Assembly: GCA_034434235.1 (NCBI GenBank)
Contig: DAOTZV010000129.1
Span: 24,284 to 88,283, forward strand
Reading direction: 5' to 3'
Source: Anaerolineae bacterium
GTDB lineage: Bacteria; Chloroflexota; Anaerolineae; CG2-30-64-16
Length of the DNA: 64,000 nucleotides
Below the pieces are notes generated by a model. That model saw only the letters and a program-made list of their open reading frames with translations, was not told where the DNA came from and ran no database searches. Both the position numbers and the translations under genes were made by a program. This document shows positions 8,421 through 61,466 of this stretch, one piece after another. The stretch's first letter is position 1. The number at the start of each line of letters is the position of its first letter.

Positions 8421-9320
8421 CTACTCCGTCCGGCGGATGCGTGGGTTGGCCAGCTCATCGAGGCCCATGTTGATCAGGGCCAGCGAACCGAGGATGAGCA
8501 CCATCGCGATGGCGGGCTCAAGCGGCCACCACCACCAGCCGTTGAAGAAGGCGCCCTGCGATTGCGCCGCCCAGATCGTGTTGCCCAGCAGCGGCTCGCG
8601 CAGCGGCCCCAGGCCGAGCACCGCCAGATAAAACGAGGCGAACATGGATGAGAAGACCTGCCCCACGAATGCGGCGGCGATGAAAGGCAACAGATTGGGC
8701 AGGATCTCCTGAAAGATGATGCCCAGGTCGCCCATGCCCGACAGCTTCGCCACCGAAACGAACTGACGCTCCTTCATCGAAAGCACCTGCGCCCGAATCA
8801 CCAGGGTCGGATTCATCCAGGCCAGCAACACGACGATGAACGCCATGGTGTAGATCGTCACCTCCCGCTTATCAATCGAGCCGGCGATGACGACCTGGAT
8901 CAAGAAGGCCGGGATGGGCGTCAGGATCTGGCAGACGCCTTTGATGGCGGCGTCGATCGCGCCGCCGAAGTAGGCCGAAGTGAAGCCCAGGAACACGCCG
9001 ATCAGCGTGCCGATGGCGCCGGCGATGATGCCGATGAGCGCCGTCTGCCACAGCCCCACCACCATCGCCGCGTACAGATCGCGGCCGAAGAAGTCGGTGC
9101 CGAAGGGATACTTCGCGCTGGGGGGGAGCTTGGGGGGCGCCGCCAGCGGATAGGCGTTCTTCGGGTCAATGGTCAACATGCCGTGGATGGTGAAGACCGC
9201 CAGGGCCAGCACGACAAGCAAGCCGACGACCAGGCTTTGATTGCGGCGCAAATAGCGCAACACCAGCACCAGGCGGCTTGGTCGCAACACATCGGGTTGA
9301 GAAATCGCCACTGTAGTCAT
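8421..9320 (-). CDS. oppC: ABC transporter permease (OppC/DppC-like)
   Basis: Six predicted TM segments, N-terminal periplasmic segment, in-operon position. Confidence 0.8.
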   Translation of the reverse strand: MTTVAISQPDVLRPSRLVLVLRYLRRNQSLVVGLLVVLALAVFTIHGMLTIDPKNAYPLAAPPKLPPSAKYPFGTDFFGRDLYAAMVVGLWQTALIGIIAGAIGTLIGVFLGFTSAYFGGAIDAAIKGVCQILTPIPAFLIQVVIAGSIDKREVTIYTMAFIVVLLAWMNPTLVIRAQVLSMKERQFVSVAKLSGMGDLGIIFQEILPNLLPFIAAAFVGQVFSSMFASFYLAVLGLGPLREPLLGNTIWAAQSQGAFFNGWWWWPLEPAIAMVLILGSLALINMGLDELANPRIRRTE

Positions 9321-34607: not shown

Positions 34608-34675
34608 GAAGGTGACCCTCCTTATGGGATGGTGATATTTTACACCAAGATCGCCAGCGATTGAAATCCCGTCTC

Positions 34676-34836
34676 GTAGCCGCGCGGCGGCGCGTGAAGC
34701 GCAAGCCGGAGGCTTGCGTTACGGGGCCGATGCCGCGCGGCTCGGCTTGTAGCGGGATACCCGTAGCATAAGCCTCCGGCTTGTAGCCGCGCGGCGGCGC
34801 GTGAAGCGCAAGCCGGAGGCTTGCGTTACGGGGCCG
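34676..34836. repeat. Two copies of a 54-bp direct repeat separated by a 53-bp spacer that contains an inverted copy of the core
   Basis: The repeat GTAGCCGCGCGGCGGCGCGTGAAGCGCAAGCCGGAGGCTTGCGTTACGGGGCCG occurs at 34676-34729 and 34783-34836; each copy carries the hairpin CAAGCC-GGA-GGCTTG; the spacer holds AAGCCTCCGGCTT. Confidence 0.6.
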
Positions 34837-34846
34837 GCGATGCGCG

Positions 34847-37800
34847 TTACTGCGACAGCGTCAGCCGTACGGTCTTGATCTCAAACGGCCGGAAGTCGAG
34901 CGCGATCTGGCCATCGTCGCACGCCAGGTCGGCCACATGCGCCTCCAGCATGTCGGTCAGCGCGGCGCGGCCGACCGGCAGGGTGGTGGACAGGACCGCG
35001 CGCGTCGCCGTGTGCTTCGCCTCATAGAGCCGCACCACCACATCGGCCGAGCCGTCTTCGGCCGGCTTGACCGTCTCGATGATGATATTCGGCGCATCCA
35101 CGCTGAAGAGAGAGCGCTCCCCGCCGTCGCCGGCCGCGGTCGTGGCCGGCACGTTCAGCTCGTAGGCCTCGCGCACGACATCGCTCTCGGCCAGGGGACC
35201 GTTCCAGGCGTAGAAGCTGTAGGTGAAGGTCTGGATCCCTTTGTCGGCCGTCATGTCGGGCGCCAGGGCCGATTTGAGCAGGGTCAGGTTGATCGAGTTG
35301 CCCAGGACGTTGACGCCGTACTTGCTGTCGTTGAGCACCGCGCAACCCCGCGCCTCTTCGGCCAGCGCGGTCCACTTGTGGTTGCACACCTCGAAGCGGT
35401 TGGCGTCGAACGGCCGCGAGTAGTGGTTGGGCCGCCGGATGTGGCCGAACTGGATCTCGTGAATTGCTTCGTTGGCGTGCACGGTGACCGGGAAGGCCAC
35501 CTTGAGGAGCTTGTGGCTTTCGCGCCAGTCCACGGTCGTGGCGAAATCCACCCGTCGGCTGTTGCGGCGCAGGCTGATCACCTGCGTCATGGTCGAGTGG
35601 TGCAGTTGCCGGGTGACGCGCAGCCGCGCTTCGAGCGGCCCCGCGGCCTCCACGACGATCGTCGCCGGCTCGGTCAGTTCCACCGGTGTCTCCGTGTACA
35701 TGCTGTCGATGTCCCAGGCGTCCCACGCGCCCGGCACGTCCTTGTACATCTTGAAGCTGTTGCACGGCCCGGCGGCCAGCTCGCGCTGCGCCTCCTTGTC
35801 GAAGAGGCTGACGATCTCGCCCAGGTCGTTGAACTCGATCCGCAGGCACTCGTTCTCCAGCATGCGCGGGGTCGCCTGCAGGGCATTCGATGTCGCTGCC
35901 GCCCCTGCCCCCCCAAAGTTGGGGGGAACGGAGGGCCACCAGATCGTCGTCCAGCCGCACGACGGCACGGTTACCTCGGCCCAGGCGGCATCGGCTTCGA
36001 CCTGCACCGGCAGCGGCCGGCCCGCGCGGTCGGCCGCCGTCTGCGCGCCGGCCGGCAGGCGCACCAGCGCCCGTCGTGGCCACGAGAGGGAGTTGAACAC
36101 GGTGACGGCCTCGGCCGGCCGCACCAGGGCCGCCTGCGCCTGGCCGGCCGCCCGGCGGGCCGCGGCGATCGCCTCGGCGTGGCTGGCCTCGGCTTCCTCG
36201 TAGACGCGATGGATCGAGGAGCCGGGCAGGATGTCGTGGAACTGGTTCAGCAGGACGGTGCGCCACGCCTCTTCCAGGTCGGCCGCCGGATAGGCGTAGC
36301 CGGGTCCGGCAAGAGCGCGCGCGGCCGCGCCCCACATCTCGGCTTCGCGCAACGCCAGCTCGGCGCGACGGTTGTTCTGCTTGGTCCTGGCCTGCGATGT
36401 GTACGTGCCGCGGTGCGCCTGGAAGTAGAGCTCGCCCACGTAGCGCTCGCGCGGCAGGCCGCGGCGCTCCAGGTCCTTGAAGAATTCGATCGGGGAAGCC
36501 ATCTTCACCCGCGGGAGGCCCTCCAGGTCTTTGGTCCGGCGCAGGAACTCCAGATGGTTGCGGGTGGGGCCGCCGCCGCCGTCGCCGTGGCCGAACGCCA
36601 GCAGGATCGTGCTGATGCCGTCCTTCTGGACGCGCTGGCGCCAGCGTTGCATCAGCGCGTTGGGATCGGTGTAGCTGTTGTAGTCGTTGAAGATGTGGGC
36701 CAGGACGGCGGTGCCGTCGATCCCTTCCCACATGAACGTGTTGTAGGGGAACGGATCGCCGCCGTTGTAGGTCCAAAAGATCTTCTGCGTGGCGAAATAC
36801 TTGATGCCGCAGCCGGCCATGATCTGCGGCAGCGCGCCGGAATAGCCGAACACGTCGGGCAACCAGAGCAGTTCGTTTTCCGCGCCGAACTCCTGTTTGA
36901 AGAAGCGCTTGCCGTGGATGAACTGGCGGATCAGCGCCTCGCCGCCGCTGATGTTGGTGTCGGCCTCGATCCACATGCCGCCTTCGGGGATGATCTTGCC
37001 GGCCTTGACCGCGGCCTTGACCTCCTCGTACTTGGCCGGATAGCGGCGTCGGAGCATCCAGTAGAGGTGCGGCTGGCTCTGGATGAACTTGAACTCGGGG
37101 TATTCCTGCATCAGCGCCAGTTGGGTGCTGATGGTGCGCGCCATCTTGCGCTCGGTCTCCTGGAGCGGCCAGAGCCACGCCACGTCTATGTGCGAATGGC
37201 CGATGGCGAAGAGGGTCGGCGCGGTGCTGCCGTTGACGCATTCGAGGAGCGGCTTGAGCCGCGCCCGCGCCCGGCGCACGGTGGCCAGGAACTCGTCGGG
37301 CGGCAGCTCGGGATCGGCGATCAGCGTGAAGTCCTTCAGGCCGGCGTCTATCTCGGCCACGCGGAGCGAATCGGGGTCGAGCAGGTTGCGGGTCTGGAAC
37401 AGCGTTTCGACGTCGAGCCAGAGCTGATAGACCTCTTCGTTCCAGATGCCGAAGGTGGTTTCGCCGACGGCGGTTTGCGTGGGGGGCGGCTCGGGCACGC
37501 TTTCGCGGCCGTAGCCCACCGGCCCCTTGCCGGCGGTGCGCAGGCCGTGGCCGGCGTAGGCTTCGATCAGAAGCTCGTAGCGGGCGCCCGGCGCGCCGCT
37601 CATGGCCAGGGTGATCTCGGTGTGCTCGCGGTCAATTGCGCCGGCCAGCCGGCCGTTGATCCACACCGCGCTTTCGCCGCCCGGGTTGGCCCGCAATACG
37701 ATGCGTTGGCCGGCCGCGGAAGGCGGCAGGACGATCTCGCCCTTGAACCAGCCGTATTCCCACTTGGCGCCCCAGCGGGTGCCGACCGGCATCGGCGCGA

Positions 37801-37948
37801 AGGGGCCGGCCAGGGCCTGGTCGGCCGTCAGTTGCTCTTTGGTGACGAAGCCGCTCAGCTCGACGGCGCCGAGCGGGCGGTAGAAGTGGTTCGTCAGCTC
37901 ATCGCGCCAGTTGGTGACGCGACGCAGCCACTCGGGATTGAGGGACAT
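34847..37948 (-). CDS. Alpha-mannosidase, glycoside hydrolase family 38
   Basis: 1033 aa; the N-terminal region and the GH38 catalytic block FAIGHSHIDVAWLWP are recognised. Confidence 0.85.
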   Translation of the reverse strand: MSLNPEWLRRVTNWRDELTNHFYRPLGAVELSGFVTKEQLTADQALAGPFAPMPVGTRWGAKWEYGWFKGEIVLPPSAAGQRIVLRANPGGESAVWINGRLAGAIDREHTEITLAMSGAPGARYELLIEAYAGHGLRTAGKGPVGYGRESVPEPPPTQTAVGETTFGIWNEEVYQLWLDVETLFQTRNLLDPDSLRVAEIDAGLKDFTLIADPELPPDEFLATVRRARARLKPLLECVNGSTAPTLFAIGHSHIDVAWLWPLQETERKMARTISTQLALMQEYPEFKFIQSQPHLYWMLRRRYPAKYEEVKAAVKAGKIIPEGGMWIEADTNISGGEALIRQFIHGKRFFKQEFGAENELLWLPDVFGYSGALPQIMAGCGIKYFATQKIFWTYNGGDPFPYNTFMWEGIDGTAVLAHIFNDYNSYTDPNALMQRWRQRVQKDGISTILLAFGHGDGGGGPTRNHLEFLRRTKDLEGLPRVKMASPIEFFKDLERRGLPRERYVGELYFQAHRGTYTSQARTKQNNRRAELALREAEMWGAAARALAGPGYAYPAADLEEAWRTVLLNQFHDILPGSSIHRVYEEAEASHAEAIAAARRAAGQAQAALVRPAEAVTVFNSLSWPRRALVRLPAGAQTAADRAGRPLPVQVEADAAWAEVTVPSCGWTTIWWPSVPPNFGGAGAAATSNALQATPRMLENECLRIEFNDLGEIVSLFDKEAQRELAAGPCNSFKMYKDVPGAWDAWDIDSMYTETPVELTEPATIVVEAAGPLEARLRVTRQLHHSTMTQVISLRRNSRRVDFATTVDWRESHKLLKVAFPVTVHANEAIHEIQFGHIRRPNHYSRPFDANRFEVCNHKWTALAEEARGCAVLNDSKYGVNVLGNSINLTLLKSALAPDMTADKGIQTFTYSFYAWNGPLAESDVVREAYELNVPATTAAGDGGERSLFSVDAPNIIIETVKPAEDGSADVVVRLYEAKHTATRAVLSTTLPVGRAALTDMLEAHVADLACDDGQIALDFRPFEIKTVRLTLSQ
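35905..35937. repeat. Palindromic G/C-run element (CCCCTGCCCCCCC-AAAGTT-GGGGGG) embedded in frame in the mannosidase gene
   Basis: Read directly; the translated insert is ...SVPPNFGGAGAAA...; same family as the three copies at 42596-42716. Confidence 0.6.
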
Positions 37949-40035: not shown

Positions 40036-41094
40036 TCACACCTGGCCGATGGCCGGATCGTCCAGCCGCACGCGGCGCCCCTCGCGCGTCGAGACATAGG
40101 TGGCGAGCACCATGCGGAGCACGGCGCGGCCTTCTTCGGCGGTTGCAATGGGAGGCCGCCGGCCGGCGAAGAAGTCGGCCAGGGGACCGGCCAGGCCGGC
40201 GATGCGCGCGCTGTGGTTGGCGGGGCTGGGGATGGCGCTCGGCGTCCAGTCCTTCTTGTCGAGCGTGTACCACTTCTGCCCGACCGCGCCGGCCGGCCGG
40301 GGCACGTTGCAGCTCGGCACGTCGCCGTAGTTCTGGATCAGGGTGCCCTTCTCGCCGATCACCTCTACCGTGTTTTCGGCCGCCACGCAGGTGAAGGAGC
40401 AGACGACCTCGGCCAACATGCCGTCGGCGTAGCGGTAGATGGCGACGCCGTTGTCGTTGGGCGCCCGCGGATTCAAGAGCGAGGCGATCTCGGCCGTCAC
40501 GGTCTCCGGCTCGCCCAGCAGCCAGTAGATGAAGTCCACCGGGTGCGCGGCGTCGTCGGCCCAGATGTCGCGGTTGAGCTGCGGGTCGAAGTGCCACATG
40601 CCGGCGACATCCCAGAGCTGGGTGGGCAATCCGTGCCGTCGGCGCACCATGAAGATCTTGCCGAGCGCGCCGCTCTCGATGATCTGCTTGATCTCGATGT
40701 TTTGTGGGTCCACGCGCATCTGCCAGGCCATGGTGAAGGGCACGCGATGCCGCTCGACCGCGGCGACGATGCGGTCGGCCTGGGCCATGGTGAGCGCGAT
40801 CGGCTTTTGCAGCGCGATCATCTTGCCCGCGGCGGCCGCCTTCTCGACCACATCGGCATGCATGGAGGTTTCGACGCCGATGACGACCGCCGGCATGTCG
40901 GGCCGGGCCAGGAACGCGTCCAGGTCGGCGTAGCCGGCGACGCCGAACTGGTCGCAGTTCTTCTGCAGCCGGGCTGCGTCGTGATCCCACCCCGCGACCA
41001 GGTTGATCTCCAGGCCGGGGTTCTGTTTCCACTGATGGCAATACATCCCGACATGCCCGTGGGCGAAGCCGAGGACGCCGAGGTTGATGGTCAT
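40036..41094 (-). CDS. Gfo/Idh/MocA-family NAD(P)-dependent oxidoreductase
   Basis: N-terminal Rossmann fold MTINLGVLGFAHGHVGMY..., about 350 aa; start at the ATG after GGAG. The track ORF extends upstream through the heptamer array in an out-of-context frame. Confidence 0.8.
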   Translation of the reverse strand: MTINLGVLGFAHGHVGMYCHQWKQNPGLEINLVAGWDHDAARLQKNCDQFGVAGYADLDAFLARPDMPAVVIGVETSMHADVVEKAAAAGKMIALQKPIALTMAQADRIVAAVERHRVPFTMAWQMRVDPQNIEIKQIIESGALGKIFMVRRRHGLPTQLWDVAGMWHFDPQLNRDIWADDAAHPVDFIYWLLGEPETVTAEIASLLNPRAPNDNGVAIYRYADGMLAEVVCSFTCVAAENTVEVIGEKGTLIQNYGDVPSCNVPRPAGAVGQKWYTLDKKDWTPSAIPSPANHSARIAGLAGPLADFFAGRRPPIATAEEGRAVLRMVLATYVSTREGRRVRLDDPAIGQV

Positions 41095-41106
41095 GGTGGA
41101 TGCTCC

Positions 41107-41160
41107 GTGAAACGTAAAACGTAAAACGTAAAACGTAAAACGTGAAGCGTGAAATGTGAG
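41107..41160. repeat. Tandem heptamer array (R)AAACGT x7 (mRNA-sense ACGTTTY) filling the intergenic 5' leader of the Gfo/Idh/MocA gene
   Basis: Read directly: GAAACGT AAAACGT AAAACGT AAAACGT AAAACGT GAAGCGT GAAATGT; it ends 13 nt before the start codon. Confidence 0.7.
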
Positions 41161-41168
41161 CAGTTTGG

Positions 41169-43175
41169 TTACTGGATCTCGACCTCCCCACACCGGATCT
41201 GGCCCGGCGCGCCGGGCGCTTCGAGGATGAGCCGATAGGTTCCGCGCGGGGTCACGGGGTTCAGGTTGACGTCGTGATGGCTGCGCACGATCTCGCCGGC
41301 CACCCAGCGGTCGGCCGGCCAGAGGCCGAACGCGTCGTTCGGCCGGGCCATGCTCTCGCCCCACACCTGGCCCTGCGCGTCCACCAGCCGGAAGCGCGGG
41401 CGGAGCTCGCCGGCGGCCGGCCGGTCGCCGGGCCGCCAGTAGCTCGTTACGTGGATCCATGCGCTCGGCGGATGGAACAGGTCGTCGCGCGGGCGCAAGG
41501 CGGCCGGATCATACAGACAGGCCAACGGCTGCACGCCGTCCAGGGCCGGCCAATCGCTGCGAGACGGCACGTTCGACGGCAGGTCGGCCAGCCGATAGCG
41601 CTGGTCGTAGACGTGGATGGCGATCCCCGGCGGGAATACCTCGGTGATCAGCGGATAGCGCGCGGCGAACCAGCCCAACACCACGTTGTTCGGGTCCAGC
41701 TCCTGATGGTGCGACTGTACCACCCACACCGCGTCGAAGGGGGCCAGCCCCGCCAGCGGCCCCTCCACCTGGTCCGCATCGCGGATCCGGTCGGTGAACG
41801 GGACGAAGATGTCCTGCGGGCCGCGGAAGTAGCGCCGGAACGCGATCTGGACGTAGTCGGGCTGGATCAGGATGGCGTCATGGGGGCCGGCGTGCGCCTG
41901 CACGAACGCCGCGGCCTCGCGCCATGCCTCGCGGCGATTCTGCGGCGCCCAATCGTAGGGCAGCGCGGCCGCCGTCGTCGCGAAGATCAGGCCGGCCGCC
42001 GCCAACCCGACCGGCCGGCGCCAGGCCCACAGCCGGTCGAGCGCCCGGCCCAGCGCCACGCAGAGCGCCGGCGCCAGGGCGATCTGGTAGCGCGTTTCGG
42101 CGAAGGTGCGGCTGTCGCGGCTCAGCAGGGCGCCGCCGATCAGGATCACGACGAGCGGCCAGATGAGGATGTAGAGTCCGCCACTTCGCCGGTTGCCGCG
42201 ATCGGCCGGCAGGAAGCAGCCGAGGAGGGCCAGCGCTCCCATCCCCGCGGCCAGGATCGTCGTCAGGCGGGCGTCCCATGCGGGCCAGCCGAGCGTGTAG
42301 GCCCTCAGCATCGTCGCGAGGGGCGCCCACATTCCCTCGAACGGCCGACCCGGTACGGCCTCGGCACCGCTCACCCGCCACGCCGACCAGGCCAGCGGCA
42401 GGAAGAGCACTGCGGCGATGCCCAGGCCCAGGACGCCCAGCCAGAAATCGCGATCCGCGTCCCGTTCGCCCCGCCGCGTCCAGCGCGCCATCAGCAGCCA
42501 GAGCCCGGCCACCGGCAGCAGGAAGGCACTGTAGAGATAGCTGTAGAGCGCGGCCGCGAAGCCGCCGCTGAGCAACAGCAGGGCGAGCGAGGACGGCCCC
42601 CCCCTCCCCCCAACTTTGGGGGGCGCCCCCCCTTCCCCCCAATCTTGGGGGGCCAGGGGGGCGGCCCCCCCCTCCCCCCCAATGTTGGGGGGCCAGGGGC
42701 GCGGGGGCGTGCGCCATGCGCCATGCGCCGCCCGCAGGAGGCCGTAAAGCCCCACCAGCGCGAAGGCCGTCGCCGGCATGAACATGCGCGCTTCCTGGCT
42801 ATACCACACCAGGAACGGGTTGATCGCCAGCAGGAGCGCGGCGAACGCGGCCCCGCGTGGCCCGCTCAGCCGCCGGCCGATTCCGTAGAGCGGCAACACG
42901 GCCAGCGCGCCGATCAGCGCGCCGAGGGAACGCACGGCCAGATCGCTCCCGCCGACCAGCGCCGTCCAGCCGTGCAGCAGGAGGTAATAGAGCGGCGGGT
43001 GCTTGTCCTGGACGAGCGCCATGCCCACGCGCCAGATCTCGCCGGCCGGCCGACCGGCCCAGTACGTACTGACGACCTCGTCGAACCACAGGCTATGGTA
43101 CGTGAGATGGTAGAAGCGCACGCCGAGCGCCAGGACCAGGATCCAGCTCAGCGGATGGCACAGTAATCGCCTCAT
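41169..43175 (-). CDS. Membrane glycosyltransferase, family 39 / PMT-ArnT-like (dolichyl-phosphate-mannose-protein mannosyltransferase superfamily)
   Basis: N-terminal multi-TM region with the family-typical WFDEVVSTYWAG...DKHPPLYYLL, and a large C-terminal soluble domain. It contains a low-complexity Pro/Gly insertion encoded by the repeat at 42596-42716. Confidence 0.7.
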   Translation of the reverse strand: MRRLLCHPLSWILVLALGVRFYHLTYHSLWFDEVVSTYWAGRPAGEIWRVGMALVQDKHPPLYYLLLHGWTALVGGSDLAVRSLGALIGALAVLPLYGIGRRLSGPRGAAFAALLLAINPFLVWYSQEARMFMPATAFALVGLYGLLRAAHGAWRTPPRPWPPNIGGEGGAAPLAPQDWGEGGAPPKVGGRGGPSSLALLLLSGGFAAALYSYLYSAFLLPVAGLWLLMARWTRRGERDADRDFWLGVLGLGIAAVLFLPLAWSAWRVSGAEAVPGRPFEGMWAPLATMLRAYTLGWPAWDARLTTILAAGMGALALLGCFLPADRGNRRSGGLYILIWPLVVILIGGALLSRDSRTFAETRYQIALAPALCVALGRALDRLWAWRRPVGLAAAGLIFATTAAALPYDWAPQNRREAWREAAAFVQAHAGPHDAILIQPDYVQIAFRRYFRGPQDIFVPFTDRIRDADQVEGPLAGLAPFDAVWVVQSHHQELDPNNVVLGWFAARYPLITEVFPPGIAIHVYDQRYRLADLPSNVPSRSDWPALDGVQPLACLYDPAALRPRDDLFHPPSAWIHVTSYWRPGDRPAAGELRPRFRLVDAQGQVWGESMARPNDAFGLWPADRWVAGEIVRSHHDVNLNPVTPRGTYRLILEAPGAPGQIRCGEVEIQ
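42596..42716. repeat. Three tandem copies of a palindromic G/C-run element (C7-8 T C6-7 / AAYNTT / G6) inside the GT39 coding sequence
   Basis: Read directly: CCCCCCCCTCCCCCC-AACTTT-GGGGGG, CCCCCCCTTCCCCCC-AATCTT-GGGGGG, CCCCCCCCTCCCCCCC-AATGTT-GGGGGG. Translated on the gene strand as ...PPNIGGEGGAAPLAPQDWGEGGAPPKVGGRGG.... Confidence 0.7.
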
Positions 43176-45204
43176 TGCACGATCACCTTGCCCAACAGGA
43201 TGGCGTCTTCTCCGCGCGGCCGTTGGCTGATGGCGCGCGCATTGCCGGCCGTCGGGTCATAGAGGCCGACCTCGATCTCGTATTCGCCGGCCGGCATGTC
43301 GGCCGGGAGCCGGATCTGATGCTCGTCCAGGACCAGATCGCCGGCCCGCCAGCTCGTGGTAGCCGCGCTGCCCTGGCCGGGGCGACTGTCGTGGCCGGCC
43401 CACACGATGCTCCCATCTTCCCGTGGCGGGCCGAGCACGTGCGTGAAGACGGTCCAGTCGGTCGTCGGGGTCTCGGCGGCCCGCCACCACAGTTGCAGGT
43501 AGATGATCTCGCCGGGGTGATAGATCGGCTCGTTCAGGTCGTAGCCCCATAGTGCGATGCCCGGCCAGCGGGTGCGGGTCACTGCAGTGGGCCACCGGCT
43601 GAGCGGAGCGCCGGCCGGTACCCGAAATGCCCGCGCGTAGACCCTGCCGCTGCGATCCAGAAAGACCTTGATCTCCTGCGCGTCCCTGTAGAGCTGCTGC
43701 AACAGGCCGCTGCCGCGGAAATCTTCGTGCTCGATCACGATGTAAGTCGCCTCCTGTGTCGCCTGTCCGAGCGCCACCTGGGTGATCCAGGCCGAACGGC
43801 CATCGAAGTGGCGCACGGTCGGCCCGTTGCGCCAGGCGAAGGCCAGGGTGGCATCGCTGGCCGGCCGCGGACTGATGTAGATGGCTTCGTCGGCCGACAG
43901 CGTCTGCACGTATTGCCCGATCTGCCACAATCCCTCATCGTAGGCGTAGAACAGATCGAGGCTGCGCCCCCAGACGACGAAATAGTCGCGGATGTTCCAG
44001 GCGGCGCTGCCCACCAGCAGGAGCGCCGCGATGGCCGGGCCGGCGATCGGCCGCAGCCGCCGGTCGGGCGCATAGCCGGGAGCCGCTCCGTCCTGAACTG
44101 CGCAATGGTGGCCAGGCCCAGGCCGCTCCACAGCGCGATCACCGGCGTGATGCCGAGCGCCCGCCGGAAGTGGGGCGCGTACTCGCTGAGCATGGTCGTC
44201 AACAGCATCGTGCCCGCGGCCAGGAAGAGCACGCCGGACCCCGGCTGTCTCCACCGTCGCAGCGCCGCCAGCAGCCCCAGGTAAAACGGGATGGCAATCA
44301 GGGCGTCGAGCGCCGGCCGGCCGGGGATGTTGCTGCGCGGATCGGCGTCTCCCGCCACGCTGAACATGCCCAGGGCCTTAAGCAGGTTGCCGGCGAGCAC
44401 ACCGACCGTCTCCTGCAGCGGTTGGCCGGGCCGGATGACGATCACCTGACCGCTGCGAAGGGTCGCCAGTTCCGGGTGTTGCAGGAAGAAGACGGCCAGC
44501 GGCGCGGCCAAAGCCGCCGCCAGCAGCGCGGCCAGGATCAGGCCGCGACCGCGACCGGCCAGTCGCTGCGGCGCGACGAGCCGCAAATAGACCAGGATGC
44601 CGCCCATCATGGGCCAAAGCAGCCAGGCGGCCGGATAGGTGTAAACGCTCAAGCCCAACGCCGCGGCCAACCCCACCCAGGCGACCGGCCGATCGGTACG
44701 CAACCCCGCCAACAGCGTCCACAGGATCACCGTCAGGAACAGCGGCACCAGGATCGGCTCGATTGCCACCCGGCTGAAGGTGATGTGCCAGCGCAGGACG
44801 GCCAACACGGTCGCGGCCAGCAACGGCAACTGTCGCGGCAAGCGTTCATCCGCCCGCACCATCTCCCGGCCGAGCGCATAGACCGCCGGCACCGTCAAGG
44901 TGCCGATCAGCGCGGTCACCGCGCGACTGACGGCCGGCCCGGCCGGGAACAGCCGAAACGCGCAGCTCTCCAGATAGATGAGCATGGCCGGCAGGCCGAA
45001 ATCGCCCGGAAAGAAGACCGGATGGTAATCGGGCCGGGTGATCACCCGCCAGGCTTCGAGCGCCTCCAACGCTTCATCGTAGTGGAAGCCGGGCGGAATC
45101 TGTTCCAGGTTTACCAGGCGCAGCGCTGCCGCCCACAACGTGACCAGGACCAGGCCGGGCCAGGGCGACCGACGCCAGGCGACAATGAACGAATGGACGG
45201 ACAT
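43172..45204 (-). pseudogene. Frameshifted GT39/PMT-like membrane glycosyltransferase, tandem paralog of 41169-43175
   Basis: Track ORF 43735-45204 carries the TM N-terminal half and ORF 43172-44254 the C-terminal domain in a +1 frame; homology to the neighbour is continuous across about 44050-44090, implying a frameshift or sequencing error. The C-termini are alike (...GEYEIEVGLYD... versus ...GTYRLILEAPG...). Confidence 0.55.
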
Positions 45205-60277: not shown

Positions 60278-60294
60278 GGGATGTCCTCCGATAG

Positions 60295-60365
60295 TCAAAC
60301 GTCAAACGTAAAACGTCAAACGTAAAACGTCAAACGTGAAACGTGAGACGTTTTACGTTTTACTT
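60295..60365. repeat. Tandem heptamer array (C/A)AAACGT x8 followed by two inverted copies (ACGTTTT), occupying the whole intergenic leader of the isomerase gene
   Basis: Read directly: CAAACGT CAAACGT AAAACGT CAAACGT AAAACGT CAAACGT GAAACGT GAGACGT TTTACGT TTTAC; same unit as the array at 41107-41160. Confidence 0.7.
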
Positions 60366-61466
60366 TTCACGATACTCTATCCCCGCCGCCTCGATCTCCG
60401 CAGCCGTCACTTCGCGGCCGAGGTGGCTGGAGAGATAGATGCCCTCGGTGATCAGGGCGGTCTTGAGCGCCAGGCCGGCCGTGTCGAGCAGCGGCACGCG
60501 GCCGAGCTGCGCCCAAACCCAGTGGCGCTGCGAATGGTCGAAGCCGGCCTCGAGCGGGTTGCACTGATGCCAGCGCCAGTCGGCCTGTTTGATGTCGAAC
60601 GTGGCGTTCATCTCCATGTCCGACAGGGTGGTGAAGTAGCCGAACGGCTCGACCCGCAACCCGGCGTGCGAGCCGAACACGCGGTCGCCGTCCGAGCTGT
60701 CGGCGTGGATCGCCCATGCTTCTTCGATGAAGTAGGTGATCCCGCCGGCCAGGCGCACCAGGCCCATGCCGAGCTCCTCGACGTTGTAATTGCCCGAGGC
60801 CCGGCGGTCGGGGTACATGTTGTCGAGCATCTGATAGGTGCGGCCCGAGACGGTCTCGACGGCCGGATTGCCGAGCAACCACATCATGCGCGCGATGTGA
60901 TAGACCGCCATGTCCACCAGCGCGCCGCCGCCGGCCATCTCTTTCTGGACGAAGGCCGGCGTGCCGTAGCCGTCCACCCACGGCCGGCCGCGGCGGCGGT
61001 AATGCGACGACTTGGCGTAGTAGATCTGGCCGAGCTGGCCTTCGTCAATCATCCGTTTGGCCGCGCGCGCCTCCGGCGTGTAGAGCGTGTTGAGCTGGAT
61101 GTGGAGCATCCGGCCGGTGCGCCGGGCGGTGTCGTACATCGCCTTTGCCTCTGAGTATACCCAAGACATCGGCTTTTCGCAATAGACGTTCTTGCCCGCC
61201 TCCAGCGCGGCGATGGTCACCGCCGCGTGCAATCGGTTGTGCAACGCCACGTCTACCGACTGGATGTCGTCTCGTCGGAGCAGCTCCCGGTAGTCGCTGT
61301 AAACCGCCACCTCCGGGCCAATGGCCTGGGCCACCCGCCGCGCTTCGTCCTCGCGCAGGTCGCACACGGCCACGATCTCGGCTTCGGGGACCTCTTTGTA
61401 GCGCTCGACGTGGACCTTGCCGATCTGGCCCACGCCGATGATGCCGATGCGGACTTTGTCGGTCAT
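60360..61466 (-). CDS. Gfo/Idh/MocA-family NAD(P)-dependent oxidoreductase
   Basis: N-terminal Rossmann fold MTDKVRIGIIGVGQIGKVHVERY, EKP motif (YCEKPMS), 368 aa. Confidence 0.8.
   Translation of the reverse strand: MTDKVRIGIIGVGQIGKVHVERYKEVPEAEIVAVCDLREDEARRVAQAIGPEVAVYSDYRELLRRDDIQSVDVALHNRLHAAVTIAALEAGKNVYCEKPMSWVYSEAKAMYDTARRTGRMLHIQLNTLYTPEARAAKRMIDEGQLGQIYYAKSSHYRRRGRPWVDGYGTPAFVQKEMAGGGALVDMAVYHIARMMWLLGNPAVETVSGRTYQMLDNMYPDRRASGNYNVEELGMGLVRLAGGITYFIEEAWAIHADSSDGDRVFGSHAGLRVEPFGYFTTLSDMEMNATFDIKQADWRWHQCNPLEAGFDHSQRHWVWAQLGRVPLLDTAGLALKTALITEGIYLSSHLGREVTAAEIEAAGIEYREK

Follow-up and report, generated by a model that had tools for sequence, protein, structure and literature searches.

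Gene-less palindromic repeats have been described in several bacterial and organellar systems. Rickettsia palindromic elements (RPEs) are found in frame within functional protein-coding genes and give the product an extra peptide at positions that tolerate it (PMC10969869, PMC3733652); they are ∼100–150 bp in length and were reported from Rickettsia (PMC10969869). REP (repetitive extragenic palindromic), BIME and REPIN sequences are imperfect GC-rich palindromes of 20–40 nt, which contain a conserved stem mismatch, occur singly or in clusters and in both orientations, and leave no target duplication (PMC3733652, PMC3116915). One end of the REP carries a conserved GTAG or CGTC tetranucleotide (PMC3733652). 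The GC clusters (e.g. GC42) of yeast mitochondria and the double-hairpin or repetitive hairpin elements of fungal and sponge mitochondria are ∼40-nt GC-rich hairpins; their substitutions are concentrated in the loop, they can be single, tandem, merged or nested, and their amplification mechanism is not settled, cut-and-paste being insufficient (PMC4478555; PMC2800124). Here we analyzed one 64,000-nucleotide stretch from an Anaerolineae bacterium (contig DAOTZV010000129.1, positions 24,284 to 88,283), referred to as the window, in whose own coordinates all features are given. The window contains an array of three tandem C-run/G-run palindromes inside a GT39 glycosyltransferase gene. The units are probably copies of a non-autonomous, gene-less, copy-propagating palindromic element, which belongs to a broad C-run/G-run hairpin family of Chloroflexota and Cyanobacteria.

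The array spans 42597–42707 on the (−) strand, the strand of the host gene, and is composed of three nested palindromes. A preliminary description of this DNA had placed three tandem palindromes at 42596–42716, and the sequence and the repeat finders agree with it; the latter gave three array copies, spaced by 29 and 40 nt, as well as numerous inverted repeats that overlap. The unit given at that time, C6-AANNTT-G6, is present as the core, but the real unit is larger, one nested two-stem hairpin of 36 nt. Unit 1 (42597–42623) is the last in the gene direction; it reads C8-T-C6-AACTTT-G6 on the (+) strand and C6-AAAGTT-G6-A-G8 on the gene strand, where it encodes PPKVGGRGG, and its 5′ outer C-arm is missing. 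Unit 2 (42626–42661) is exactly 36 nt in length and forms a complete element, which is C7-TT-C6-AATCTT-G6-CCA-G6 on the (+) strand and C6-TGG-C6-AAGATT-G6-AAG-G6 on the gene strand; it is read in another frame, as APLAPQDWGEGG (peptide APQDWGEGG). Unit 3 (42665–42707) comes first in the gene direction. It is C8-T-C7-AATGTT-G6-CCA-G4-CGC-G5 on the (+) strand and CGCCCC-TGG-C6-AACATT-G6-GAG-G6(GG) on the gene strand, it is translated into PPRPWPPNIGGEGG (peptide PPNIGGEGG), and its 5′ outer arm is degenerate. On the (+) strand, CG separates units 1 and 2 and CGG separates units 2 and 3. One TGCGCCA tandem repeat (×2.9, 42710–42729) adjoins the array; it is native coding sequence (AHGAWR) and was rejected as a part of the element, as it is conserved in orthologues that have no insert.

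The palindromes of the GT39 gene are a real feature, far beyond chance. With one mismatch allowed, the core CCCCCAANNTTGGGGG has 4 matches in the 64-kb window, compared to 0.02 expected from 100 dinucleotide shuffles of the window, none of which reached 4. We also built a profile of the 38-nt element from 21 independent elements and searched it with nhmmer. Exactly four copies were found in the 64 kb, with E values of 1e-11, 2e-9, 1e-7 and 4e-5. The match of unit 2 (42662–42625, E = 1.3e-11) spans the full model, followed in the array by unit 3 (42699–42666, E = 1.1e-7) and unit 1 (42624–42598, model positions 10–36, E = 3.5e-5). All six frames of the array are stop-free. In agreement with the preliminary description, the array is translated in frame as one Pro/Gly-rich insert, PWPPNIGGEGGAAPLAPQDWGEGGAPPKVGGRGGP, within an intact open reading frame (ORF); it encodes residues ∼157–193 (PWPPNIGGEGGAAPLAPQDWGEGGAPPKVGGRGG). 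The units differ in reading frame and encode three different peptides, which fits the unit spacings of 29 and 40 nt, neither of them a multiple of 3; therefore, the repeat is at the DNA level.

The host gene (41169–43175, (−) strand) encodes a membrane glycosyltransferase of the PMT_2/GT39 type, 668 residues in size. It matches Pfam PMT_2, and its homologues are named ‘glycosyltransferase family 39 protein’ by NCBI. The PMT_2 match ends at residue 150 (profile position 93 of 160), just ahead of the insert. In the 26-homologue alignment, none of the 25 orthologues (43–75% identity) has the Pro/Gly segment; in all of them the helix ending in GLYGLL is followed by a short variable linker and then by the next helix. 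Over the insert interval, DNA comparison showed that the gene is 90 nt longer than the orthologue of locus L204. Together with the mannosidase orthologues described below (79–83% identity), which also lack such a segment, these comparisons bear out that the segment is an insertion. The insert is placed between predicted helices 132–151 and 194–212. We built an AlphaFold2 model on the homologue alignment, with a predicted local distance difference test score (pLDDT) of 84.9 and a predicted template modelling score (pTM) of 0.80. Residues 156–192, corresponding to the insert, are coil and form the only long segment with pLDDT <50; the insert is thus modelled as one disordered loop between two helices.

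A fourth copy, which is solitary and partly decayed, is located at 35899–35936 in the GH38 α-mannosidase gene (34847–37948, (−) strand; 1033 residues, five domains). The presence of a copy in this gene had been noticed before, and it is confirmed by the core match at 35910–35925 and by the profile (E = 1.6e-9). The copy reads (G)CCCCTG-C7-AAAGTT-G6-AAC-GGAGGG on the (+) strand and PSVPPNFGGAGA on the (−) strand of the gene; relative to transcription, its polarity is opposite to that of the GT39 units. It sits in a hypervariable loop between CGWTT and LENE. Seven orthologues (79–83% identity) have the same loop, filled by unrelated sequence of similar length, and none of the seven has PPNFGG. 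One site in oppC (9120–9137, G7-AGCTT-G6) had been taken for a degenerate half-copy. As it is a direct pair of G-runs, with no palindrome, and its profile E value is 67 (0.1 bit), the site is not a copy and was rejected.

The canonical element of the family is C6-TGG-C6-AANNTT-G6-AAC-G6. It contains one outer C6/G6 stem, one conserved asymmetric 3 × 3 internal loop, one inner C6/G6 stem and one 6-nt loop, in which the two central bases are free. Over 50 sites the central dinucleotide takes twelve different values; AG is found 20 times and its complement CT 8 times. Scanning of one genome per GTDB species with the pattern CCCCCCAANNTTGGGGGG gave at least 118 loci. Among the loci listed, 55 are cyanobacterial by record title, 50 are from Chloroflexota and 13 from other groups; the carriers include the cultured isolates Lyngbya PCC 8106, Moorena bouillonii PNG, Okeania KiyG1 and Petrachloros mirabilis, and Altericista CCNU0014, which has a closed chromosome. 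In 104 of the 123 matches listed, a second C-run or G-run is present within 12 nt of the core, joined to it by recurrent bridges. In metagenomes, a TGG-type pattern with 25 specified bases (CCCCCCTGGCCCCCCAANNTTGGGGGG) gave 87 matches at 84 loci, corresponding to 51 non-redundant sites. The two scans thus revealed further copies in many unrelated genes and organisms. Across organisms, the non-stem parts, namely the TGG/AAC or TAG/AAC bridges and the A..TT loops, are shared at dozens of unrelated sites.

The element exists in several forms. The compact 6+6 form is (G)C6-TGG-C6-AANNTT-G6-AAC-G6(C); as the reverse complement, it has GTT...CCA bridges. It is also the form of the window units, whose bridges deviate slightly and are CTT/CCA on the (+) strand and AAG or GAG on the gene strand. 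The compact 7+7 form, C7-TTCAT-C7-AANNTT-G7-AAAGA-G7, is common in Anaerolineae metagenome-assembled genomes (MAGs). [quoted passage not shown] At gathering thresholds, Rfam gave nothing in the whole window, where only sub-threshold generic GC-hairpin chance matches were seen at 42400–42900, and nothing relevant in 8 related loci. Search of the literature with six sequence-string variants returned one irrelevant paper, and the keyword search returned only general papers on REP, MITE, RPE and GC clusters; no paper containing the element sequence was found. The family, which matched none known to the preliminary description, is apparently undescribed; its cyanobacterial composite form may overlap with an SDR (small dispersed repeat) family (Elhai 2008, outside the literature covered).

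Many copies live inside genes. Among the genome-scan matches listed, an ORF of 150 residues or more covers the core in 51% of the cases, compared to 83% of random positions; therefore, many copies are intergenic, especially the cyanobacterial composites. Of the 51 TGG-type sites, 37 (∼73%) are located in ORFs of at least 200 residues with coding-like third-position GC content (GC3), defined as GC3 exceeding the local GC content by at least 0.08. These 37 genic sites represent all six frame and orientation classes, 18 lying along the gene and 19 opposite to it; copies were also found in non-coding spacers. Hosts verified by Pfam include a class-I aminoacyl-tRNA synthetase, a Pyr_redox_2/Fer4_20 oxidoreductase, a FlpD-Fer4 protein, DUF3160, Peptidase_C11, two more PMT_2 glycosyltransferases, a CHAT-TPR protein and a Type ISP restriction enzyme. 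The insert often falls within the Pfam domain match of its host.

The canonical 36 nt correspond to 12 codons and are free of stop codons in all six frames, whichever of the 16 central dinucleotides is present; stops close two frames of the TAG-bridged form and one frame of the 7+7 form. Translation in the six frames gives PPWPPKVGGNGG, PPGPPKLGGTG, PLAPQSWGERG, PPVPPNFGGPGG, PPFPPTLGGQG and PRSPQLWGARG. All of them are Pro/Gly-rich, and all occur in real ORFs. The element is tolerated in working genes because it adds 12 codons, is stop-free in every frame and is read as a floppy Pro/Gly loop. At locus L013 (1394–1492), from a Pseudanabaena MAG, two in-frame composite copies separate the coupler domain of a Type ISP restriction-modification enzyme from its methylase domain (APLAPQVWGEQDGSPPELGDLGG, twice); the TAG-bridged form of Cyanobacteria can therefore also be coding. 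At L128 (371–2686, (−) strand), a 771-residue helicase-like ORF contains at least three separate C/G-run inserts, APPPFIPPNWGGLRGAG, PLPEVGRGWGRGP and PPKPALSPVEGLGGAEEGVTTSPPGLGGTEGG, so one gene can gather many copies.

The strongest case for movement, as read from the alignments, comes from a conserved gene similar to GDP-mannose-3,5-epimerase, for which both filled and empty alleles exist at three sites. The gene was recognized at locus L131, where it carries two copies. Its homologues (75–91% identity) are mostly 320–326 residues in size and have no insert; subsets of them carry C/G-run elements at the three sites. At site 1, GCC-CC(C/T)-ACC directly followed by CAG-GCC in the empty allele becomes GCG-CCG-C6-GTT-C6-AACATT-G6-CCA-G6-CAG-GCC in the filled one, with a net gain of 33 nt. 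At site 2, 48 nt are gained between ACCC and TGGGG, and in two orthologues with the same flanks the elements are of opposite polarity (GTT...TCA versus TAA...AAA). Site 3 has 36 nt in place of 12 native nt, a net gain of 24 nt. The targets are short C/G runs, with which the junctions overlap. In the same comparison, at a site other than that with the opposite polarities, L209 has a second complete element nested in the loop of the first one.

Copy number also differs between close strains. An independent ENA metagenome contig, L001, encodes the protein P0001 and is 99.86% identical to the window over 22 kb. Over this length one large difference was found: the array of L001 has five units, compared to three in the window. 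The two extra units, 54 nt each, are located at the position of unit 1, and each consists of one complete element and one diverged ∼15-nt copy of the right flank of the array. The reading frame is kept in both arrays. We infer that slippage or unequal exchange between units caused the difference.

Compared to the described systems, the element shares with RPEs the in-frame palindromic insertion into functional ORFs, and the core interpretation of the preliminary description, namely RPE-like palindromic DNA elements inserted in frame, is supported to this extent. It is not an RPE. RPEs form ten Rickettsia-specific sequence families and are AT-rich, whereas the present element is 36 nt rather than ∼100–150 bp in length, has C6/G6 stems, is stop-free in six frames, and has no sequence relationship to any Rickettsia family. 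With no agreement in length, sequence or host, the two resemble each other in function only. In its size, its nested stems with the 3 × 3 internal loop and its tandem arrays, the element is similar to REP and REPIN. However, REPs are extragenic by definition, whereas 37 of the 51 TGG-type sites are in long coding-like ORFs; the GTAG/CGTC tag is absent from the consensus (G)C6-TGG-C6-AANNTT-G6-AAC-G6(C). REPs are mobilised by RAYTs (REP-associated tyrosine transposases, which are IS200/IS605-like Y1 transposases), whose gene typically has the repeats on its flanks; no RAYT gene was seen near the copies, which is a weak test covering flanks only.

Loop-centred variation (twelve central values over 50 sites) and tandem arrays are also features of GC42. 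Different from GC42, which has an AG target duplication, the compact sites of the present element show no such duplication. The GC clusters are organellar, reside in AT-rich genomes and are mostly intergenic, whereas this family is bacterial, resides in genomes of high or moderate GC content and is largely intragenic; the resemblance is one of behaviour, not of descent. Like the cyanobacterial MITEs (Nezha, Microcystis) and SDRs, the element is small and non-autonomous and can nest, and its composite form occurs in MITE-like units (PMC3184786). However, published MITEs are 70–300 bp in length, with terminal inverted repeats and target duplications, whereas no duplication of fixed length accompanies this element, either in the compact or in the composite form. 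On our best reading, it is a member of neither the RPEs nor the yeast mitochondrial GC clusters, although it behaves like them.

The comparisons above demonstrate dispersal of the element, presence and absence among orthologues, both orientations, three frames, and nesting or adjacency of copies. New copies might stem from a trans-acting activity that acts on the hairpin in its folded or single-stranded state; alternatively, template switching primed on C/G-run microhomology might make them. Insertions would land at or beside short C/G runs and leave no regular target duplication. Conservation of the bridges (TGG/AAC, TAG/AAC) and of the A...TT loop ends across two phyla points to some machinery that recognizes them, or else to a recent spread by horizontal transfer. 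Three features speak against classical cut-and-paste, namely the lack of a target duplication, the insertion of the element into itself and the irregularity of the junctions. These junction features would fit action on a single-strand hairpin, as for REP/RAYT and IS200/IS605, or microhomology-primed template switching.

Several observations weigh against a copy-propagating element. The net insertion sizes in the epimerase gene are irregular (+33, +48 and +24 nt), and classical cut-and-paste transposition is therefore not supported. The filled and empty alleles are only ∼80–90% identical, which blurs the exact insertion junctions. At 27 unique compact sites, no regular target-site duplication was found; the best flanking repeat has a mean length of 5.6 nt, compared to 4.8 nt in controls, with a few outliers of 14–17 nt. 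No transposition event was directly observed, and movement is read from allele comparison. The element occupies only two loci in the window, and additional copies are present at modest density in the fetched loci. The difference between three and five units could in principle stem from repeat collapse in short-read assembly. Moreover, no mobilising enzyme was found. All-against-all clustering of 4375 ORFs from the flanks yielded generic families (ABC transporters, SpoIIE-GAF, TPR-CHAT, DegT), and Uma2 nucleases are near copies in only 4 loci. No transposase family recurs in ∼1.4 Mb of flanks, where a single-copy gene would rarely fall within 8 kb of a copy. In the fetched loci, no pair of half-sites 0.7–3 kb apart encloses a transposase-like ORF; four candidate pairs came up, all of them separate inserts within ordinary ORFs, which include that of the 771-residue helicase-like protein with its three or more inserts. 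Two other possibilities were considered and rejected. A phage vector is not supported, as the element is essentially absent from viral contigs, with one match in 2.9 million. Integron attC sites, which follow the pattern RYYYAAC/GTTRRRY, were considered for the GTT/AAC triplets; the flanking purine/pyrimidine pattern of the element is wrong and its copies are in ORFs.

Of the other explanations, a minimal MITE survives best, though we consider it unlikely: the element would be two ∼18-nt terminal inverted repeats of an insertion sequence, moved by the transposase of the latter through cut-and-paste or copy-and-paste. The element is indeed an inverted repeat of defined polarity (TGG versus AAC bridges), and the cyanobacterial composites lie within MITE-like units with outer inverted repeats (GGACTTACGCA..., TGTACACACA... 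and GGCGTTGCTGATT...). In addition, 15% of the composite copies are flanked by direct repeats of at least 11 nt, compared to 1.6% of controls. However, these repeats vary from 12 to 34 nt, which is unlike transposition with a fixed staggered cut, and the compact copies have no consistent duplication. The half-site search, which found no enclosed transposase, and the clustering of neighbours, which found no transposase family, also disagree with this explanation. Composites with 12–34 nt flanking repeats were observed in Chloroflexia and Caldilineaceae, at L059 (4680–4745), L033 (341–408), L106 ((−) strand) and L062 (1894–2060). They end in a conserved GTGAACG(A/C)TTAC tail; at L062, one 32-nt flank occurs three times around two copies.

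Less probable still is a nucleic-acid signal selected by the host, which could be a G-quadruplex (G4) or i-motif, a stable hairpin pausing transcription or translation, or slippage tracts for phase variation of surface glycosyltransferases. The predicted structure is very stable. The folding energy of the 141-nt array is −109.1 kcal/mol as RNA (z = −3.75) and −54.7 kcal/mol as DNA (z = −2.95), and that of the mannosidase copy is −34 kcal/mol. The G:C hairpin is the predicted ground state of the array, in which alternative stem registers are possible because every stem is a homopolymer run. The array contains many G6 and C6–8 runs, and its sequence would permit a G4 or i-motif. Three of the hosts (the window gene, L022 and L063) are PMT_2-type envelope glycosyltransferases, and poly-G/C tracts in glycosyltransferase genes are classical contingency loci of Neisseria and Campylobacter. 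However, the genic sites have no orientation bias (18 versus 19) and use every frame, the hosts include housekeeping enzymes such as the aminoacyl-tRNA synthetase and the epimerase, copies also exist in spacers, and no frameshifted allele distinguishes the window from L001. With loops of up to 7 nt, the sole canonical G4 motif is the trivial G7-A-G8 at 42665–42680. An intrinsic terminator was rejected, since no terminator-like site is present in 40900–43400 and no T-run follows any unit.

Origin without mobility, in which native Pro (CCC) and Gly (GGG) codon runs of a GC-rich genome would have given rise to each segment independently, through local slippage and quasi-palindrome template switching, is strongly disfavoured; we would give it little chance. 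The empty sites are already C/G-rich (GCCCCCACC followed by CAGG, ACCC followed by TGGGG, and GGGGCGGCGTCCCC in the GT39 orthologue), arrays expand in place and junctions are irregular, as this explanation would have it. However, independent origin cannot explain why the same bridges and A..TT loops recur at dozens of unrelated sites, and the 87 exact matches to the pattern with 25 specified bases are far beyond chance. The notion that codon usage forces the bridges is contradicted by the six-frame distribution. A repeat at the protein level, in which a PPxxGG motif, selected as a linker or turn, would have been duplicated inside the protein, is very improbable. The insert is Pro/Gly-rich and loop-forming, and similar peptides recur in many proteins; but the three units, read in different frames, encode PPNIGGEGG, APQDWGEGG and PPKVGGRGG, so that DNA is the conserved level, and this DNA is found in every one of the six frames as well as in non-coding spacers. 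Finally, an artefact of homopolymer runs, raised by the error-prone nature of homopolymers and hairpins and by the different unit numbers in two metagenome assemblies, deserves practically no credence, since the array is present with its frame kept in both independent assemblies and the family is found in cultured isolates and in the closed chromosome of Altericista CCNU0014, which refutes it for the existence of the element.

Colonisation of genes in frame by palindromes has so far been regarded as a curiosity of Rickettsia and organelles; our data suggest that it is common in two large free-living phyla. The family is unusual in its nested homopolymer stems, its 12-codon size, its openness in six frames, the mostly intragenic location of one subfamily, and its presence in two phyla. 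The design principle, 36 nt without stops and Pro/Gly-rich in every frame, explains how a selfish hairpin can reside inside essential genes; the element also offers a route for fast creation and resizing of surface loops, as with the three versus five units at 99.86% identity. The repeats inflate ‘low-complexity’ regions in protein predictions from MAGs and break Pfam matches, as for the PMT_2 match that ends at the insert; they likely hamper assembly and PCR, and they could act as strain-typing markers. The element also makes it testable how gene-less hairpin repeats without target duplications propagate. Tentatively, and with rather more doubt than belief, one may go further and regard the family as a new cross-phylum class of protein-coding palindromes. 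Such a class would be a major ongoing source of loop insertions in Chloroflexota and Cyanobacteria proteins, would spread by a non-classical route (hairpin- or microhomology-primed template switching, or RNA-mediated copying of a composite master form), and would have a sequence shaped for survivable insertion in any frame.

Other short repeats were observed in the course of these comparisons. In the alignments of the epimerase homologues of L131 (A3) and of the mannosidase homologues (A4), subsets of proteins that are otherwise 80–90% identical carry further short inserts, which are in frame, lineage-specific and fixed in position and have no relation to the C6/G6 element. Among these inserts are PSAGSGQR, AQGRLL(PDGDPSTG...), FDDASSNKT repeats and SPQGGEGRGEGG, which occurs twice in P0466. 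They suggest that small repeats compatible with coding form several families in Anaerolineae.

The spacer that lies immediately downstream of the mannosidase stop contains one 61-nt direct repeat (34669–34729 and 34776–34836), whose copies are 96.7% identical. This repeat, which is also found in strain L001, contains the hairpin GCAAGCC-GGAG-GCTTGC and looks like a different REP-like extragenic element. Two AT-rich heptamer tandem arrays (41106–41154 and 60294–60371) fill the short leaders of two (−) strand genes, both starting with ATGACCAT. The first array, (CGTAAAA)×7 on the (+) strand, is located in the interval from the GT39 stop (41169) to the Gfo/Idh/MocA start (41094), 12–60 nt upstream of the ATG and just before GGAG; the second is composed of ∼11 units of GTCAAAC/GTAAAAC/GTGAAAC. 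Such arrays recall the STRR (short tandemly repeated repetitive) heptamer repeats of cyanobacteria, and they could serve as a regulator-binding site or a translational enhancer.

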